Notes: a model not told the origin generated them from the letters alone. A DNA stretch of 64,000 bases from Escherichia coli (GCF_003334405.1 NZ_QOWM01000002.1), one strand, 5' to 3'. Positions 1 through 8,035 are shown, numbered from the stretch's first letter. Numbers and translations: made by a program.

Positions 1-2
1 AT

Positions 3-803
3 CACACCACGCAATATGTTTATGAGCATCGCATGGGCGTCAAACCTGGCGGCAATATTGCACTGCTGGCGTGTGCAGGTCCGATGGGCATTGGCGCTAT
101 CGATTACGCCATTAACGGCGGCATACAACCGTCGCGGGTGGTGGTGGTCGATATCGACGACAAACGTCTGGCGCAGGTACAGAAGCTGCTGCCGGTGGAA
201 CTGGCGGCCAGTAAAGGCATTGAGCTGGTGTATGTGAATACCAAAGGGATGAGCGATCCTGTCCAGATGCTGCGGGCGCTGACAGGAGATGCCGGGTTCG
301 ATGACATTTTTGTTTATGCGGCGGTGCCTGCTGTCGTTGAGATGGCTGATGAATTACTGGCGGAAGATGGCTGTCTGAACTTCTTTGCCGGGCCGACGGA
401 TAAAAACTTCAAAGTGCCGTTTAATTTCTACAACGTCCATTACAACAGCACGCACGTCGTCGGTACATCTGGCGGTTCAACGGACGACATGAAAGAGGCG
501 ATTGCCCTTAGCGCCACTGGGCAGTTACAGCCGTCGTTTATGGTGACCCATATCGGTGGCCTGGATGCGGTGCCAGAAACCGTGCTCAATCTGCCGGATA
601 TCCCTGGCGGTAAAAAACTCATTTATAACGGCGTGACCATGCCGCTCACTGCCATTGCCGATTTTGCCGAAAAAGGCAAAACCGATCCGCTGTTTAAAGA
701 GTTGGCGCGGCTGGTTGAGGAAACGCACGGCATCTGGAATGAACAGGCCGAGAAATATCTGCTGGCACAATTTGGCGTTGATATCGGGGAGGCCGCGCAA
801 TGA
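3..803 (+). CDS. yggP: Zn-dependent alcohol dehydrogenase-like oxidoreductase, C-terminal part (gene starts upstream of the window)
   Basis: Open frame runs from the window edge to the stop at 803; translation has a Rossmann-type GxGxxG segment (LLACAGPMGIGAID); lies immediately upstream of the GlpX paralog as in K-12. The ATG at 33 is internal, not the true start. Confidence 0.7.
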   Translation, partial: HTTQYVYEHRMGVKPGGNIALLACAGPMGIGAIDYAINGGIQPSRVVVVDIDDKRLAQVQKLLPVELAASKGIELVYVNTKGMSDPVQMLRALTGDAGFDDIFVYAAVPAVVEMADELLAEDGCLNFFAGPTDKNFKVPFNFYNVHYNSTHVVGTSGGSTDDMKEAIALSATGQLQPSFMVTHIGGLDAVPETVLNLPDIPGGKKLIYNGVTMPLTAIADFAEKGKTDPLFKELARLVEETHGIWNEQAEKYLLAQFGVDIGEAAQ

Positions 804-1765
804 TGTCCCTGGCGTGGCCATTATTTCGCGTTACGGAACAGGCAGCGTTGGCTGCCTGGCCGCAAACCGGATGTGGCGACAAAAATAAAATTGATGGCCT
901 GGCGGTCACCGCGATGCGCCAGGCATTAAACGACGTCGCTTTTCGTGGACGAGTGGTTATCGGCGAAGGAGAAATTGACCATGCGCCGATGCTGTGGATT
1001 GGCGAAGAGGTGGGCAAAGGCGATGGGCCAGAAGTCGATATCGCGGTTGATCCCATTGAAGGCACGCGGATGGTGGCGATGGGGCAGAGCAATGCGCTGG
1101 CGGTCATGGCTTTCGCCCCTCGAGATAGCCTGTTACATGCGCCCGATATGTATATGAAAAAGCTGGTTGTTAATCGGCTGGCGGCGGGCGCGATTGATCT
1201 GTCTTTGCCTCTGACGGACAACCTGCGCAACGTGGCGAAAGCGTTAGGCAAACCGCTGGATAAGCTGCGCATGGTTACGCTGGATAAACCGCGCCTGAGT
1301 GCCGCGATTGAGGAAGCAACACAGCTGGGCGTGAAGGTTTTTGCCCTGCCGGATGGCGATGTCGCCGCCAGCGTGCTGACCTGCTGGCAGGATAATCCTT
1401 ACGATGTGATGTACACCATCGGCGGTGCGCCAGAAGGCGTGATTTCTGCCTGTGCCGTTAAAGCATTAGGCGGGGATATGCAGGCCGAGCTGATTGACTT
1501 TTGCCAGGCTAAAGGGGATTACACGGAAAATCGGCAGATTGCAGAGCAGGAGCGCAAGCGTTGCAAGGCAATGGGCGTTGACGTTAACCGTGTGTACTCG
1601 CTCGATGAACTGGTGAGGGGGAACGATATCCTCTTTAGCGCTACGGGCGTGACGGGCGGTGAGCTGGTGAACGGTATCCAACAGACGGCGAATGGGGTGC
1701 GGACGCAGACATTACTGATCGGCGGCGCGGACCAAACGTGTAATATAATAGACTCCCTGCATTGA
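800..1765 (+). CDS. yggF: fructose-1,6-bisphosphatase class II (GlpX paralog)
   Basis: 321 aa ORF; GlpX-family motifs (VVIGEGEIDHAPML, DPIEGT); ATG overlaps the upstream stop (ATGA). Confidence 0.85.
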   Translation: MMSLAWPLFRVTEQAALAAWPQTGCGDKNKIDGLAVTAMRQALNDVAFRGRVVIGEGEIDHAPMLWIGEEVGKGDGPEVDIAVDPIEGTRMVAMGQSNALAVMAFAPRDSLLHAPDMYMKKLVVNRLAAGAIDLSLPLTDNLRNVAKALGKPLDKLRMVTLDKPRLSAAIEEATQLGVKVFALPDGDVAASVLTCWQDNPYDVMYTIGGAPEGVISACAVKALGGDMQAELIDFCQAKGDYTENRQIAEQERKRCKAMGVDVNRVYSLDELVRGNDILFSATGVTGGELVNGIQQTANGVRTQTLLIGGADQTCNIIDSLH

Positions 1766-1786
1766 TGGTGATCTATCGGAAGACCA

Positions 1787-2296
1787 ATGGCGACGCTGAC
1801 AGAAGATGATGTGCTTGAGCAACTGGATGCACAGGACAATTTATTTTCATTTATGAAAACTGCGCATACCATTTTGCTCCAGGGGATACGCCAGTTTCTG
1901 CCGTCGCTGTTTGTCGATAACGATGAAGAGATCGTGGAATATGCAGTGAAGCCGTTACTCGCCCAAAGCGGCCCGCTTGACGATATTGATGTTGCACTGC
2001 GTTTGATTTATGCGTTGGGGAAAATGGATAAATGGTTGTACGCCGATATCACGCATTTTTCCCAGTTCTGGCATTACCTGAACGAACAGGATGAAACGCC
2101 CGGATTTGCCGATGACATGACCTGGGATTTTATCAGCAACGTCAATAGCATAACCCGCAATGCGATGCTCTATGACGCGTTAAAAGCGATGAAGTTCGCT
2201 GATTTCTCCGTCTGGTCAGAGGCGCGTTTTAGCGGAATGGTCAAAACGGCGCTGACGCTGGCAGTAACGACCACCTTAAAGGAATTAACGCCGTGA
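1787..2296 (+). CDS. yggD: MtlR-like protein (mannitol-operon-repressor family)
   Basis: 169 aa ORF; position between yggF and yggC matches K-12 synteny. Confidence 0.75.
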   Translation: MATLTEDDVLEQLDAQDNLFSFMKTAHTILLQGIRQFLPSLFVDNDEEIVEYAVKPLLAQSGPLDDIDVALRLIYALGKMDKWLYADITHFSQFWHYLNEQDETPGFADDMTWDFISNVNSITRNAMLYDALKAMKFADFSVWSEARFSGMVKTALTLAVTTTLKELTP

Positions 2297-3006
2297 AAAT
2301 TGAATTAACGGTGAATGGGCTGAAGATACAGGCACAGTACCAGAACGAAGAGATTGAAAATGTACATAAACCGTTGCTGCACATGTTGGCGGCCTTACAG
2401 ACGGTAAATCCGCAGCGGCGTACGGTGGTTTTTCTTTGCGCTCCGCCGGGGACGGGTAAATCAACCCTAACCACCTTCTGGGAATATCTCGCGCAACAAG
2501 ACCCGGAACTGCCCGCTATTCAGACGCTCCCGATGGATGGTTTTCACCATTACAATAGCTGGCTGGATGCGCATCAATTGCGCCCCTTCAAAGGCGCACC
2601 AGAGACATTTGACGTTGCGAAACTGACGGAAAATCTGCGCCAGGTCGTGGAAGGGGATTGTACGTGGCCGCAGTACGATCGACAAAAGCATGATCCTGTT
2701 GAAGATGCGTTGCACGTTACCGCACCACTCGTCATCGTCGAAGGAAACTGGTTGTTACTGGATGATGAAAAGTGGCTGGAGTTGGCATCTTTCTGCGATT
2801 TTTCTATTTTTATTCATGCACCTGCTCAAATTCTGCGGGAGCGCTTGATTAGTCGTAAAATTGCGGGAGGATTAACGCGGCAAGTAGCCGAAGCATTTTA
2901 TGCCCGCACCGATGGCCCCAATGTCGAGCGTGTGCTGATGAATAGCCGTCAGGCCAATCTGATAGTAGAGATGACTGAAGAAGGCCGGTATCACTTCACA
3001 AGCTGA
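2293..3006 (+). CDS. yggC: P-loop nucleoside/pantothenate kinase-like protein
   Basis: 237 aa ORF with Walker A motif (APPGTGKST); GTG start overlaps the yggD stop (GTGA). Confidence 0.8.
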   Translation: MKIELTVNGLKIQAQYQNEEIENVHKPLLHMLAALQTVNPQRRTVVFLCAPPGTGKSTLTTFWEYLAQQDPELPAIQTLPMDGFHHYNSWLDAHQLRPFKGAPETFDVAKLTENLRQVVEGDCTWPQYDRQKHDPVEDALHVTAPLVIVEGNWLLLDDEKWLELASFCDFSIFIHAPAQILRERLISRKIAGGLTRQVAEAFYARTDGPNVERVLMNSRQANLIVEMTEEGRYHFTS

Positions 3007-3290
3007 CAATTTATTCCAGTTATTGTAGGGTTATTATTACGCCAGCCTGGAATAAAGCTTCCCACAAAAGGGGATAAAAGTGTGATGTGAGTCAGATAAA
3101 TGTCTTCTTCGGCTGGACAAACATTCCTTTTATTCCACGTTTCGCTTATCCTAGCTGAAGCGTTTCAGTCGATTAAATGTTCGACAATTAACCAATCAGT
3201 CGCAGTTTGCGACAGGTAAGGTTTCCCCGGACGATTTGCTGGATTACTCTGTCTGGCAAATTTGCTCAGGGAAAACCTTGCAGGAGATCT

Positions 3291-4310
3291 ATGACCGTAC
3301 GCGTAGCGATAAATGGCTTCGGTCGCATCGGGCGTAATGTGGTTCGTGCTTTGTATGAATCCGGACGCCGGGCGGAAATTACCGTGGTGGCAATCAACGA
3401 ACTGGCGGATGCTGCGGGCATGGCGCATTTGTTGAAATATGACACCAGCCATGGCCGTTTTGCATGGGAAGTACGACAGGAACGCGATCAACTTTTTGTT
3501 GGTGATGACGCCATCCGCGTATTGCATGAACGTTCACTGCAATCGCTCCCCTGGCGTGAACTTGGCGTTGATGTAGTCCTCGACTGCACCGGCGTATATG
3601 GCTCCCGCGAGCATGGCGAAGCGCATATTGCCGCCGGGGCCAAAAAAGTGCTCTTTTCACATCCTGGCAGTAACGATCTCGACGCGACCGTTGTTTACGG
3701 CGTCAATCAGGATCAACTTCGTGCGGAACACCGCATCGTTTCTAACGCTTCCTGTACCACGAATTGCATAATTCCCGTCATCAAATTGTTAGATGATGCG
3801 TACGGTATTGAGTCCGGCACTGTGACCACAATTCACTCCGCCATGCACGATCAACAGGTTATTGATGCATACCATCCTGACCTGCGTCGCACCCGGGCAG
3901 CCAGCCAGTCGATCATTCCGGTCGATACTAAACTGGCCGCCGGTATCACACGATTTTTTCCGCAATTTAACGATCGCTTTGAAGCGATTGCGGTACGTGT
4001 GCCAACCATAAATGTGACGGCAATCGATTTAAGCGTGACGGTGAAGAAACCTGTAAAAGCCAATGAAGTCAACCTGTTGCTGCAAAAAGCAGCACAAGGT
4101 GCATTTCATGGTATAGTTGACTATACGGAATTGCCGTTGGTCTCTGTAGATTTTAACCACGATCCGCACAGTGCCATTGTCGATGGCACCCAAACCCGGG
4201 TCAGTGGCGCACACCTGATCAAAACGTTGGTCTGGTGCGATAACGAATGGGGCTTTGCTAACCGAATGCTCGACACGACGTTAGCTATGGCTACTGTTGC
4301 TTTCAGGTAA
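3291..4310 (+). CDS. epd: D-erythrose-4-phosphate dehydrogenase
   Basis: 339 aa from the internal ATG ([17 protein letters not shown]...); GAPDH-family N-terminus and active-site region (SNASCTTNC); the ORF-track start at 3207 is a spurious extension. Confidence 0.9.
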
Positions 4311-4359
4311 GACGCAAGCAGCGTCTGCAAAACTTTTAGAATCAACGAGAGGATTCACC

Positions 4360-5523
4360 ATGTCTGTAATTAAGATGACCGATCTGGATCTTGCTGGGAA
4401 ACGTGTATTTATCCGTGCGGATCTGAACGTACCAGTAAAAGACGGGAAAGTAACCAGCGACGCGCGTATCCGTGCTTCTCTGCCGACCATCGAACTGGCC
4501 CTGAAACAAGGCGCAAAAGTGATGGTAACTTCCCACCTGGGTCGTCCTACCGAAGGCGAGTACAACGAAGAATTCTCTCTGCTGCCGGTTGTTAACTACC
4601 TGAAAGACAAACTGTCTAACCCGGTTCGTCTGGTTAAAGATTACCTCGACGGCGTTGACGTTGCTGAAGGTGAACTGGTTGTTCTGGAAAACGTTCGCTT
4701 CAACAAAGGCGAGAAGAAAGACGACGAAACCCTGTCCAAAAAATACGCTGCACTGTGTGACGTGTTCGTAATGGACGCATTCGGTACTGCTCACCGCGCG
4801 CAGGCTTCTACTCACGGTATCGGTAAATTCGCTGACGTTGCGTGCGCAGGCCCGCTGCTGGCAGCTGAACTGGACGCGCTGGGTAAAGCACTGAAAGAAC
4901 CTGCTCGCCCGATGGTGGCTATCGTTGGTGGTTCTAAAGTATCTACCAAACTGACCGTTCTGGACTCCCTGTCTAAAATCGCTGACCAGCTGATTGTTGG
5001 TGGTGGTATCGCTAACACCTTTATCGCGGCACAAGGCCACGATGTGGGTAAATCCCTGTACGAAGCTGACCTGGTTGACGAAGCTAAACGTCTGCTGACC
5101 ACCTGCAACATCCCGGTTCCGTCTGATGTTCGCGTAGCAACCGAGTTCTCTGAAACTGCACCGGCTACCCTGAAATCTGTTAACGATGTGAAAGCTGACG
5201 AGCAGATCCTGGATATCGGTGATGCTTCCGCTCAGGAACTGGCTGAAATCCTGAAGAATGCGAAAACCATTCTGTGGAACGGTCCGGTTGGCGTGTTCGA
5301 ATTCCCGAACTTCCGCAAAGGTACTGAAATCGTGGCTAACGCTATCGCAGACAGCGAAGCGTTCTCCATCGCTGGCGGCGGCGACACTCTGGCAGCAATC
5401 GACCTGTTCGGCATTGCTGACAAAATCTCCTACATCTCCACTGGCGGCGGCGCATTCCTCGAATTCGTGGAAGGTAAAGTACTGCCTGCAGTAGCGATGC
5501 TCGAAGAGCGCGCTAAGAAGTAA
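4360..5523 (+). CDS. pgk: phosphoglycerate kinase
   Basis: 387 aa from [25 protein letters not shown]...; classic Pgk sequence; the track start at 4297 is an upstream extension. Confidence 0.95.
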
Positions 5524-5530
5524 AAAATCA

Positions 5531-5557
5531 CAGGGCAGGGAAACCTGCCCTTGTTTC
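5531..5557 (+). terminator. stem-loop (GGGCAGG-GAAA-CCTGCCC) followed by a weak T-tract between pgk and fbaA; possible partial terminator/attenuator
   Basis: 7-bp inverted repeat seen directly in the sequence just after the pgk stop. Confidence 0.4.
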
Positions 5558-5737
5558 AGCGCGCTTTTAGAGCACGCAATTTTTCATACTCTAAATAATT
5601 CGAGTTGCAGGAAGGCGACAAGAGAGTGAATCCCCAGGAGCTTACATAAGTAAGTGACTGGGGTGAGCGAACGCAGACGCAGCACATGCAACTTGAAGTA
5701 TGACGAGTATAAGGCCCGACGATACAGGACAAGAGAC

Positions 5738-6817
5738 ATGTCTAAGATTTTTGATTTCGTAAAACCTGGCGTAATCACTGGTGATGACGTACAGAAAGTT
5801 TTCCAGGTAGCAAAAGAAAACAACTTCGCACTGCCAGCAGTAAACTGCGTCGGTACTGACTCCATCAACGCCGTACTGGAAACCGCTGCTAAAGTTAAAG
5901 CGCCGGTTATCGTTCAGTTCTCCAACGGTGGTGCTTCTTTTATCGCTGGTAAAGGCGTGAAATCTGACGTTCCGCAGGGTGCTGCTATCCTGGGCGCGAT
6001 CTCTGGTGCGCATCACGTTCACCAGATGGCTGAACATTATGGTGTTCCGGTTATCCTGCACACTGACCACTGCGCGAAGAAACTGCTGCCGTGGATCGAC
6101 GGTCTGTTGGACGCGGGTGAAAAACACTTCGCAGCTACCGGTAAGCCGCTGTTCTCTTCTCACATGATCGACCTGTCTGAAGAATCTCTGCAAGAGAACA
6201 TCGAAATCTGCTCTAAATACCTGGAGCGCATGTCCAAAATCGGCATGACTCTGGAAATCGAACTGGGTTGCACCGGTGGTGAAGAAGACGGCGTGGACAA
6301 CAGCCACATGGACGCTTCTGCACTGTACACCCAGCCGGAAGACGTTGATTACGCATACACCGAACTGAGCAAAATCAGCCCGCGTTTCACCATCGCAGCG
6401 TCCTTCGGTAACGTACACGGTGTTTACAAGCCGGGTAACGTGGTTCTGACTCCGACCATCCTGCGTGATTCTCAGGAATATGTTTCCAAGAAACACAACC
6501 TGCCGCACAACAGCCTGAACTTCGTATTCCACGGTGGTTCCGGTTCTACTGCTCAGGAAATCAAAGACTCCGTAAGCTACGGCGTAGTAAAAATGAACAT
6601 CGATACCGATACCCAATGGGCAACCTGGGAAGGCGTTCTGAACTACTACAAAGCGAACGAAGCTTATCTGCAGGGTCAGCTGGGTAACCCGAAAGGCGAA
6701 GATCAGCCGAACAAGAAATACTACGATCCGCGCGTATGGCTGCGTGCCGGTCAGACTTCGATGATCGCTCGTCTGGAGAAAGCATTCCAGGAACTGAACG
6801 CGATCGACGTTCTGTAA
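5738..6817 (+). CDS. fbaA: fructose-bisphosphate aldolase class II
   Basis: 359 aa from MSKIFDFVKPGVITGDDVQKVF...; the track start at 5654 is an upstream extension. Confidence 0.95.
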   Translation: MSKIFDFVKPGVITGDDVQKVFQVAKENNFALPAVNCVGTDSINAVLETAAKVKAPVIVQFSNGGASFIAGKGVKSDVPQGAAILGAISGAHHVHQMAEHYGVPVILHTDHCAKKLLPWIDGLLDAGEKHFAATGKPLFSSHMIDLSEESLQENIEICSKYLERMSKIGMTLEIELGCTGGEEDGVDNSHMDASALYTQPEDVDYAYTELSKISPRFTIAASFGNVHGVYKPGNVVLTPTILRDSQEYVSKKHNLPHNSLNFVFHGGSGSTAQEIKDSVSYGVVKMNIDTDTQWATWEGVLNYYKANEAYLQGQLGNPKGEDQPNKKYYDPRVWLRAGQTSMIARLEKAFQELNAIDVL

Positions 6818-6842
6818 GATATTCCTTTCTGCTTATCTCAAG

Positions 6843-6867
6843 GCCCGCTCTGCGGGTCTTTTTTTCG
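6843..6867 (+). terminator. rho-independent terminator after fbaA
   Basis: CCCGC-TCT-GCGGG stem followed by TCTTTTTTT. Confidence 0.6.
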
Positions 6868-6877
6868 CCAAAAGCAA

Positions 6878-6985
6878 AATTGCCTGATGCGCTACGCTTA
6901 TCAGGCCTACACGTATCCTGCAATATATTGAATTTGCAGGTTTTTGTAGGCCGGATAAGGCGTTCACGCCGCATCCGGCATGACA
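6878..6985. repeat. REP/BIME element (two REP units in opposite orientation)
   Basis: GCCTGATGCGCTACGCTTATCAGGCCTAC and GTAGGCCGGATAAGGCGTTCACGCCGCATCCGGCA are canonical E. coli REP palindromes. Confidence 0.8.
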
Positions 6986-7010
6986 AAGCGCACATTGATA
7001 TCTGTCTGAG

Positions 7011-7033
7011 CCCCGCTCTGCGGGGATTTTTTC
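7011..7033 (+). terminator. second terminator-like hairpin (near-duplicate of the one at 6843)
   Basis: CCCCGC-TCT-GCGGGG stem plus T-tract, followed by the same TCGCCAAAAGCAA tail as the first copy. Confidence 0.45.
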
Positions 7034-7174
7034 GCCAAAAGCAAGGTGATTCAGATGAGAAATCTGTGATCTATTTGGCAAAATTATGCTTTATTGTTTA
7101 CCCTTGTCAGACTGCCCGTCATAAGGCGGCGGAGTGTATTTCTCCATTTTGAGTCAGTTGAAAAGGAATATTGA

Positions 7175-8035
<861 letters not shown>

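Follow-up and report, generated by a model that had tools for sequence, protein, structure and literature searches.

The first 3,290 nucleotides (nt) of a 64,000-nt stretch of Escherichia coli DNA (GCF_003334405.1 NZ_QOWM01000002.1), the whole of which is referred to here as the window, carry the genes yggP (in part), yggF, yggD and yggC and the spacer leading to epd. This region is the 3′ two-thirds of the cmtB-cmtA-yggP-yggF-yggD-yggC cluster of E. coli K-12. Positions 1-3300 are 100% identical to K-12 MG1655 and are matched in all of the complete E. coli genomes of our collection (5426/5426), and sequence, genes and order agree without any difference with the part of the K-12 cmtBA/yggPFDC locus (b2934-b2928, RefSeq) that lies inside the window. 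In the MG1655 RefSeq annotation the order on one strand is tkt, cmtB, cmtA, yggP, yggF, yggD, yggC, epd, pgk, fbaA and mscS, with yggF labeled “glpX” and yggD labeled “fumE,” and yggP, yggF, yggD, yggC and epd all lie on the + strand.

The cluster consists of six genes, of which those for a mannitol-family phosphotransferase system (PTS) transporter, cmtB and cmtA, come first, and the intergenic gaps from cmtB to yggC are 27, 14, -4, 21, and -4 nt in order, the 14-nt gap separating cmtA from yggP and the 21-nt gap yggF from yggD. On the + strand of the window, the 3′ part of yggP (1-803) encodes a zinc-type medium-chain dehydrogenase/reductase (MDR) that is a paralogue of SorE, yggF (800-1765) a paralogue of class II (GlpX-type) fructose-1,6-bisphosphatase (FBPase), yggD (1787-2296; RefSeq “fumE”) a small all-helical protein of the MtlR family, and yggC (2293-3006), which has a GTG start, a P-loop kinase related to PanK, uridine kinase, and PRK. 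The RefSeq coding sequence of yggP (5526-6803 of L001 in our numbering of loci) corresponds to window positions -474 to 803; as the window opens 474 nt inside the gene and holds only its last 803 nt, an initial annotation made from this sequence alone saw the yggP tail without cmtB and cmtA, and described a four-gene unit from yggP to yggC. The tight packing and the two 4-nt overlaps on which it drew are indeed present (yggP stop/yggF start, ATGA, 800-803; yggD stop/yggC start, GTGA, 2293-2296), but these four genes form the tail end of cmtBA-yggPFDC, a cluster of six. A terminator scan found nothing terminator-like inside 1-3006, and with overlapping or abutting frames on the same strand and no internal terminator the genes have the layout that would be expected of an operon. 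The start/stop overlaps are kept in Salmonella, and the tight packing is conserved or nearly so in other genera. The cmtB promoter is reported to be activated by CRP in a lacZ assay (PMC3105977).

Profile and structure matches uphold the families to which the four proteins had been assigned, namely zinc MDR dehydrogenase, GlpX-type class II FBPase, MtlR-family protein, and P-loop kinase, and CmtA and CmtB reach the NCBIfam models of mannitol-type EIICB and EIIA. YggP is 45.8% identical to SorE (L-sorbose-1-phosphate reductase) of Klebsiella pneumoniae over residues 1-415, 98% of its length (E 4e-114), and the context of that sorE is a genuine sor operon, flanked by a sorC-like gene, a short-chain dehydrogenase/reductase (SDR) gene, and genes for mannose-family EIIABCD; comparison with SorE of Lactobacillus plantarum gave a similar outcome. 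No NCBIfam equivalog model reaches its cut-off on YggP, Pfam ADH_N and ADH_zinc_N are recorded on YggP homologues, and the catalytic-zinc ligands C39, H68, and E69 together with the G185-P-M-G188 Rossmann motif are invariant in a 13-sequence alignment. YggF scores 588 bits with the GlpX equivalog TIGR00330 (cut-off 259.3, residues 1-321) and matches the E. coli GlpX structure 1ni9 with an E-value of 5e-111. According to PMC8719807, FBPase activity of YggF with kinetic parameters is credited to Brown et al. 2009, and loss of yggF has a slight effect on fermentative growth on glycerol. YggC scores 504 bits with NF006742 (cut-off 402), while the PanK and Udk models match below their cut-offs; its nearest structure is 3c8u, deposited as “fructokinase” (E 4.6e-21), followed by PanK structures (E 1e-10), its Walker A motif GTGKST lies at residues 53-58, and Pfam PRK is recorded on the Aliivibrio orthologue. 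It had been predicted as a sugar/polyol kinase in 2011, under the entry “Sugar/polyol kinase, in progress” (PMC3223725).

YggD reaches the equivalog model NF007455 with 333 bits (cut-off 167) and gives 89 bits with the MltR subfamily model NF008234, below the cut-off of 149; Pfam MtlR (PF05068) is recorded on its Salmonella and Aliivibrio orthologues. Its best structural match, 3c8g, is essentially the identical protein (E 4e-108), and the MtlR structures 6kcr and 3brj follow at a greater distance (E 3e-12 and 5e-9). MtlR-family proteins are not known to act through a classical helix-turn-helix. No homology to fumarase families was detected, NCBIfam giving only the two MtlR-type models and PDB only YggD and MtlR entries. 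The role of regulator initially given to YggD is doubtful, since chromatin immunoprecipitation with exonuclease digestion (ChIP-exo) found no binding sites for it, which argues against direct DNA binding under the conditions tested, and since RefSeq now names it fumarase E (PMC8464067). The name goes back to an activity report that is cited in the same paper.

To see how the cluster is composed in other organisms, 80 species-representative loci were drawn through an alignment of YggP homologues and annotated by tblastn and precomputed Pfam neighbourhoods. EIIA, EIICB, YggP, and YggC occur together in essentially every complete locus, from Enterobacterales and Vibrionaceae to Clostridia, and across this range YggP retains 63-67% identity to its E. 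coli counterpart. YggD is found in all Gammaproteobacteria of the set, where yggD and yggC overlap or abut in every locus, and is absent from Firmicutes, the loci of which have a PRD-type regulator and the order EIIA-YggC-EIICB-YggP. The phosphatase gene is more variable. Five Rahnella species and Budvicia do not have it, and all complete Vibrionaceae loci lack yggF and carry after yggC a gene for a PHP-domain protein (NF006702, a predicted phosphatase), which looks like a non-orthologous replacement of the bisphosphatase; examples of this gene lie at L007:10603-11349 and in loci L064-L089. Within E. coli itself, about 560 of the 5426 complete genomes (about 10%) have a yggF with an internal deletion of about 650 bp, corresponding to window positions from about 975 to 1625, and in the blood isolate SF-173 (L096:1400-1715) yggF is annotated as incomplete, its C-terminus missing, with yggP, yggD, and yggC intact. 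YggF is therefore dispensable in many lineages.

Two further enzymes recur beside the cluster. In Rahnella laticis (L052:13566-16800) genes for a class II fructose-bisphosphate aldolase (fba) and a transketolase (tkt), with a mutual overlap of 20 nt, directly follow yggC, and one contig of Firmicute-like gene content (L092:8269-13150) carries the string EIIA-EIICB-YggP-GlpX-tktN-tktC-YggC-like-PHP, in which transketolase is split. In five Vibrionaceae loci tkt is adjacent on either side. Outside Enterobacteriaceae, the cmt-ygg cluster sits elsewhere in the genome, away from epd. In Rahnella loci L055-L059, one further gene resembling cmtA (52% identity) and one resembling yggD (34-35%) lie 2-4 kb downstream of the cmt cluster and probably belong to an mtlA...mtlR mannitol operon.

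Given the loss of yggF from about 10% of E. coli with its neighbours retained, one may ask whether the genes have anything to do with each other: YggF could be a spare FBPase, YggD the fumarase FumE, YggC a nucleoside or nucleotide kinase, YggP an orphan dehydrogenase, and CmtBA a cryptic mannitol PTS. This is how the RefSeq product names would have it, and it accords with the FBPase activity and the slight glycerol phenotype of YggF (PMC8719807) and with the fumarase E assignment in the form in which it is cited in PMC8464067. We regard such a collection of unrelated neighbours as rather improbable. The PTS, YggP, and YggC co-occur in near-constant order from Enterobacterales to Clostridia at 63-67% YggP identity, the start/stop overlaps are conserved, the phosphatase has been swapped for a non-orthologous PHP protein at the same locus, and YggD has an MtlR fold and no match to a fumarase family.

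A catabolic role in the metabolism of a sugar or polyol phosphate, as the initial annotation had it, remains the best reading of the cluster. In the scheme that we favour, the mannitol-family PTS would import a polyol or ketose and phosphorylate it at C1, and YggP, being SorE-like, would act at the carbon beside the phosphate and interconvert polyol-1-phosphate and ketose-1-phosphate. YggC would then add a second phosphate at the far end to yield a ketose 1,ω-bisphosphate, which could either be split by a class II aldolase or lose its C1 phosphate through YggF (through the PHP protein in Vibrionaceae), the latter leaving a ketose ω-phosphate for transketolase or glycolysis. YggD would have an accessory role as a non-DNA-binding protein of the MtlR type and would most likely regulate through contacts with other proteins. 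On this scheme, the obligatory presence of a kinase in a PTS pathway would make sense, as would the exchange or loss of the phosphatase and the repeated occurrence of aldolase and transketolase genes nearby.

It is also conceivable that YggD and YggC form a regulatory pair which senses a sugar phosphate or the phosphorylation state of the PTS and controls cmt, in which case the pathway would run only from the PTS through YggP to a central intermediate. The overlap or abutment of yggD and yggC in every gammaproteobacterial locus would suit a pair of this kind, as would the lack of a classical helix-turn-helix in MtlR-family proteins and of a significant Pfam enzyme-family match for YggC. However, Firmicutes retain YggC between EIIA and EIICB with a PRD-type regulator in place of YggD, so that YggC evidently functions without YggD, and YggC is most closely related to small-molecule kinases (PanK, uridine kinase, and the 3c8u “fructokinase”); we consider a regulatory pair highly doubtful.

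Several characterized systems share part of the logic of the favoured scheme. The L-sorbose (sor) operon of K. pneumoniae and Lactobacillus, which consists of a PTS, SorE, and glucitol-6-phosphate dehydrogenase, likewise delivers a PTS-imported, C1-phosphorylated sugar to a SorE-type MDR dehydrogenase. Its PTS is of the mannose family (EIIA/B/C/D), whereas that of cmt is of the mannitol family (EIICB and EIIA), and it has a second dehydrogenase of the SDR type and neither kinase nor bisphosphatase, whereas cmt contains YggC together with YggF (or PHP) but lacks a second dehydrogenase. In the fructose PTS route, FruBA gives fructose-1-phosphate (F1P), FruK converts this to fructose 1,6-bisphosphate (FBP), and FBPase supplies hexose-6-phosphate, so that the succession proposed for cmt-ygg is alike (F1P to FBP to fructose-6-phosphate), and the galactitol route (Gat PTS, GatD, a kinase, and the GatYZ aldolase) shares with our proposal the sequence of PTS product, second phosphorylation, and aldolase. 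GatD is likewise an MDR dehydrogenase. YggC, however, is not a kinase of the PfkB or PfkA type but a P-loop protein related to PanK, Udk, and PRK, and the steps of cmt-ygg are predicted ones. The mannitol operon mtlADR has the mannitol-type EIICB/EIIA in common with CmtA and CmtB and the MtlR fold family in common with YggD, but cmt has no MtlD-type mannitol-1-phosphate 5-dehydrogenase and YggD, at 89 bits, stays below the MltR cut-off of 149. In glpFKX, GlpX is co-transcribed with a pathway that enters below FBP; cmt-ygg similarly holds a GlpX-family FBPase in an operon for a carbon source with reported CRP control, but YggF is a paralogue, in a different operon, and can be dispensed with in many lineages.

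A bolder formulation, which we offer tentatively and hold to be less probable than not, is that the PTS, the SorE-like YggP, the PanK/PRK-like YggC, and the exchangeable YggF or PHP protein, with aldolase and transketolase as recurrent associates, constitute an undescribed “phosphate-swap” route for a rare polyol or ketose, with YggC representing a new class of ketose-phosphate kinase and with a rare hexitol, a pentitol, a heptitol or sedoheptulose, and a tetritol as the candidate substrates. The GlpX paralogue YggF would then act on a bisphosphate, possibly sedoheptulose-1,7-bisphosphate or another that is not derived from fructose.

The initial annotation had placed the genes directly upstream of core glycolytic genes. 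epd (RefSeq coding sequence 3291-4310, + strand) is the first gene of the separately promoted epd-pgk-fbaA and lies outside the cluster. Its transcription start has been mapped 132 nt upstream of the ATG by 5′ rapid amplification of cDNA ends and pyrosequencing (PMC2759082), and when the published promoter sequence is placed on the window, the start is the A at 3159. The core promoter (3121-3159, + strand) has a -10 element TATCCT at 3147-3152 and, at -30 to -22 (3129-3137), a third copy of TTTATTCCA, a motif that also occurs in the inverted repeat described below; the TTTATTCC element at this place is conserved across all aligned genera. Further upstream, a pattern match to a CRP-type box, TGTGATGTGAGTCAGA (3081-3096, + strand), is centred 70.5 nt upstream of the epd start and is conserved in all aligned genera. 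CRP is reported to bind upstream of the epd core promoter as a class I activator (PMC5888115), and this binding fits the box at 3081-3096, the assignment being our own reading of the sequence. A Cra (FruR)-type palindrome, GCTGAAGCGTTTCAGT (3154-3169, + strand), lies over the transcription start and is invariant in 22 of 23 aligned enterobacterial spacers, with a single change at the 3′ end in the remaining one. The Cra ChIP-exo footprint covers the epd -10 element and start site, for which a promoter-occluding model of Cra has been put forward (PMC5888115), and again it is by our own reading that the footprint fits the palindrome at 3154-3169. A promoter scan gave three weak promoter-like matches, fewer than in shuffled sequences, and was uninformative. 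Taken together, epd-pgk-fbaA is a separate unit with its own promoter under CRP and Cra control.

The 5′ untranslated region (UTR) of epd (3159-3290, 132 nt) is very highly conserved across genera. It contains small hairpins (GTCGA...TCGAC, AAGG...CCTT, and GCTG...CAGC; for example with arms at 3218-3231 and 3266-3279) with little covariation, RNAalifold giving -11.4 kcal/mol and three pairs with double changes.

The junction of yggC and epd seen in K-12, and hence the adjacency to glycolytic genes, holds in only 2095 of the 5426 complete E. coli genomes (39%). In 3329 others (61%) the two genes are separated by a 3.3-kb operon for an energy-coupling factor (ECF) transporter, which encodes an ECF S component of the CD3073 family, the T component, two ABC ATPases, and a PPC-domain protein. 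The operon is transcribed divergently from epd and converges on yggC, overlapping the latter by 29 nt. The island form is also present in the examined Salmonella, E. albertii, E. whittamii, several Citrobacter, and other genera. K-12 lacks the island between 3006 and about 3070; examples from elsewhere lie at L006:2806-5882 and L009:12648-15733. In Buttiauxella sp. B2 the ECF island lies between tkt and cmtB, at the opposite end of the cluster. Escherichia sp. E1V33 and MOD1-EC7003 (L012 and L013) have yggC-epd spacers of 639 and 591 bp that hold no ECF genes and retain island-type sequence on the epd side, and appear to be independent island losses distinct from the K-12 junction. Upstream of the PPC gene, in the PPC-epd spacer (about 1340-1500 of L002), a palindrome TCTGATATAAATCAGG is conserved in Escherichia, Salmonella, Citrobacter, and Silvania and may be an operator of the ECF operon.

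Genomes of the K-12 type differ from the others by more than the missing island. From cmtB to about 2751, K-12 and O157 are at least 95% identical, identity then falls to 63-67% up to the yggC stop, a blastn search with 2938-3069 found no match, and homology returns at about 3070. The sharp recombination break at about 2752 implies that K-12 yggC is a mosaic. The divergent patch so delimited (2752-3069, about 320 bp, unstranded) comprises the last ~85 codons of yggC together with the inverted repeat, and within E. coli it is found only in island-less genomes (2095/5426). It is 89-94% identical among island-less E. coli and at most about 74% identical to any other genus, or about 69% over longer alignments. 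At the protein level, the C-terminal 92 residues of YggC are 64% identical between K-12 and O157, compared to 72-80% between O157 and Salmonella or Citrobacter. No donor lineage of the patch was found among the 80 species loci. That the K-12 lineage simply lost the island by a recent deletion was considered and rejected, because the same 284-bp spacer with its palindrome occurs in Citrobacter and Raoultella and because the 3′ third of K-12 yggC stands at much the same distance from O157 and from other genera. Instead, the adjacency of yggC and epd in K-12 results from replacement of the ECF operon and the yggC 3′ end by the ~320-bp divergent patch. On the basis of a strong genomic-SELEX peak attributed to epd, a FlhDC box has been predicted (PMC9962212). 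It lies at 2850-2893, inside the 3′ end of yggC and within the patch, and would thus be absent or different in island-bearing strains.

The view to which the initial annotation pointed is one in which a self-contained four-gene unit is coupled to epd-pgk-fbaA by position and read-through, with the inverted repeat serving as an operator site. In its favour, the 4-nt overlaps are real, the scan found no canonical terminator between yggC and epd, so that some read-through may occur in K-12, the motif of the repeat is present three times, once within the epd core promoter, and its right arm, TGGAATAA, keeps a fixed distance from epd with or without the island; furthermore, other lineages have aldolase and transketolase genes joined to the cluster, and binding of H-NS and FlhDC has been reported for the yggC-epd spacer or the yggC 3′ end. 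Nevertheless, the unit invariably includes the PTS genes cmtBA, and in 61% of E. coli and in the examined Salmonella the convergent 3.3-kb operon stands between yggC and epd and rules out coupling by read-through in those genomes. epd has its own mapped start and its own control by CRP and Cra (PMC2759082; PMC5888115), island-bearing strains and genera with a 240-bp spacer lack the left arm of the repeat, and YggD, the sole candidate for a local regulator, showed no DNA binding in ChIP-exo (PMC8464067). Coupling of this kind is unlikely.

The inverted repeat between yggC and epd that the initial annotation had singled out is real, each arm being one base longer than first given. It has the form TTTATTCCAG-27 nt-CTGGAATAAA (3010-3056, + strand), begins 3 nt past the yggC stop, and has perfect arms of 10 bp at 3010-3019 and 3047-3056. 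By resampling, the chance of a perfect 10-bp inverted repeat with a loop of 3-40 nt in a 284-nt spacer of like composition is about 1%, and the 9-mer TTTATTCCA has three copies in the 64-kb window where 0.39 would be expected. A mobile element, either a repetitive extragenic palindrome (REP) or a miniature inverted-repeat transposable element (MITE), was rejected, as the 91-bp segment is single-copy in every carrier genome and the 9-mer occurs only here in the window. A search of 1-7200 against Rfam with E-values up to 1 gave no match inside 1-3290, so that no known RNA family lies at the repeat. Three Rfam matches lie beyond the yggC-epd region (5584-5703, 6903-6945 on the - strand, and 6949-6984): downstream of fbaA, ES036/CssrF exceeds its gathering threshold and has a sub-threshold naRNA4 match beside it, and the pgk-fbaA spacer holds a sub-threshold V_AS5-like match.

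Island-less Citrobacter and Raoultella have the same 284-bp spacer and, just after the yggC stop, a near-perfect hairpin of about 20 bp with a folding energy of -17 to -24 kcal/mol (z -4.4 to -6.5). Among eight sequences, pairing is kept in 81% of the cells, compared to 25-48% when the partner strand is slid, and the outermost pair is AU in four sequences and UA in three, switching between genera. The covariation score was matched by 8 of 500 shuffles, a figure that comes from only eight sequences, with the inner stem broken in E. coli. Island-bearing genomes have the right arm TGGAATAA, equally far from epd, but neither the left arm nor the loop; Lelliottia, Huaxiibacter, and an Enterobacter metagenome-assembled genome have 240-bp spacers that are also without the left half. 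From these patterns the repeat is read as the 3′-end hairpin of the cmt-ygg transcript, eroding in E. coli, the right arm of which belongs to the conserved region upstream of epd while left arm and loop complete the hairpin. Like intrinsic terminators and the stabilizing stem-loops of 3′ UTRs, it stands immediately after the last stop codon of the operon, and it would most likely mark or stabilize the 3′ end of the transcript and limit read-through. As judged from the sequence, it is better explained as an eroded, conserved 3′-end hairpin in a recombinant patch than as a dedicated protein-binding site.

The main alternative is that the repeat is a functionless junction palindrome, a now decaying scar of the event that replaced the island and the yggC 3′ end, in which template switching, for instance, could have copied the pre-existing right arm. 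Its location exactly at the recombination junction would be accounted for in this way, and so would the relation of the two halves, the left being the reverse complement of a right half that pre-exists in island-bearing genomes. The inner stem is already eroded in E. coli, and genera with 240-bp spacers manage without the repeat. On the other hand, Escherichia, Citrobacter, and Raoultella have kept the 284-bp spacer and its palindrome amid diverging flanks, with very stable folds (z down to -6.5), and the outermost pairing is preserved through a switch from A-U to U-A. We take a scar to be possible though somewhat unlikely.

Putting the parts together, the account towards which we lean, with a confidence only slightly better than even, is that the cluster encodes a PTS-fed polyol or ketose pathway running through a ketose bisphosphate, that epd stands beside it in K-12 as a separate unit by virtue of the patch replacement, and that the repeat is the 3′-end hairpin of the cluster's transcript. 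A number of points weigh against this account. On the side of the pathway, the searchable literature contains no substrate for cmtAB-yggPFDC and no enzymatic activity for YggP or YggC, a Pfam scan of K-12 YggC returned no significant family, and the roles of kinase and bisphosphatase are drawn solely from family membership and gene linkage. The YggP step could run in either direction, the adjacency of tkt in Enterobacteriaceae could be positional and not functional, and the published assignment of YggD as fumarase E does not fit the scheme. With respect to the hairpin, that of K-12 folds at -13.2 kcal/mol (z -1.2 to -1.6) with a decayed inner stem and is only marginally more stable than shuffled sequence, and the evidence from covariation, which is suggestive, rests essentially on one AU-to-UA switch among the eight sequences. 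Unlike intrinsic terminators, with their GC-rich stem and U-tract, the repeat at 3010-3056 has a stem with an AT-rich base that is followed by GCTTCCCAC and no U-tract, and was not called by the terminator scan. Finally, yggP contains a sigma-54 binding motif, CTGGCGGCAATATTGCA (46-62, + strand, sense), 744 nt upstream of yggF, which is site IS35 of a sigma-54 ChIP-seq study (PMC4591121) and could give yggFDC a partly independent transcription. Of the loci examined, only those of Escherichia species have the motif intact, and in Salmonella, Citrobacter, and the other genera it is broken by synonymous changes; a conserved internal promoter was rejected on this ground, the site being probably fortuitous or confined to the genus.

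The locus is fully annotated and largely described, and is in that sense already known and mostly ordinary biology. What it does teach is caution against inferring function from gene adjacency in K-12, the yggC-epd junction being a strain-specific recombination product of 39% of complete E. coli genomes. The remaining interest lies in the fact that cmt-ygg is among the remaining carbohydrate loci of E. coli K-12 without a known substrate. Comparison across species indicates that the PTS, YggP, and YggC are the obligatory core, that the phosphatase is exchangeable, and that aldolase and transketolase are recurrent partners, a pattern that would provide a concrete and testable pathway scheme together with a short list of substrate classes.

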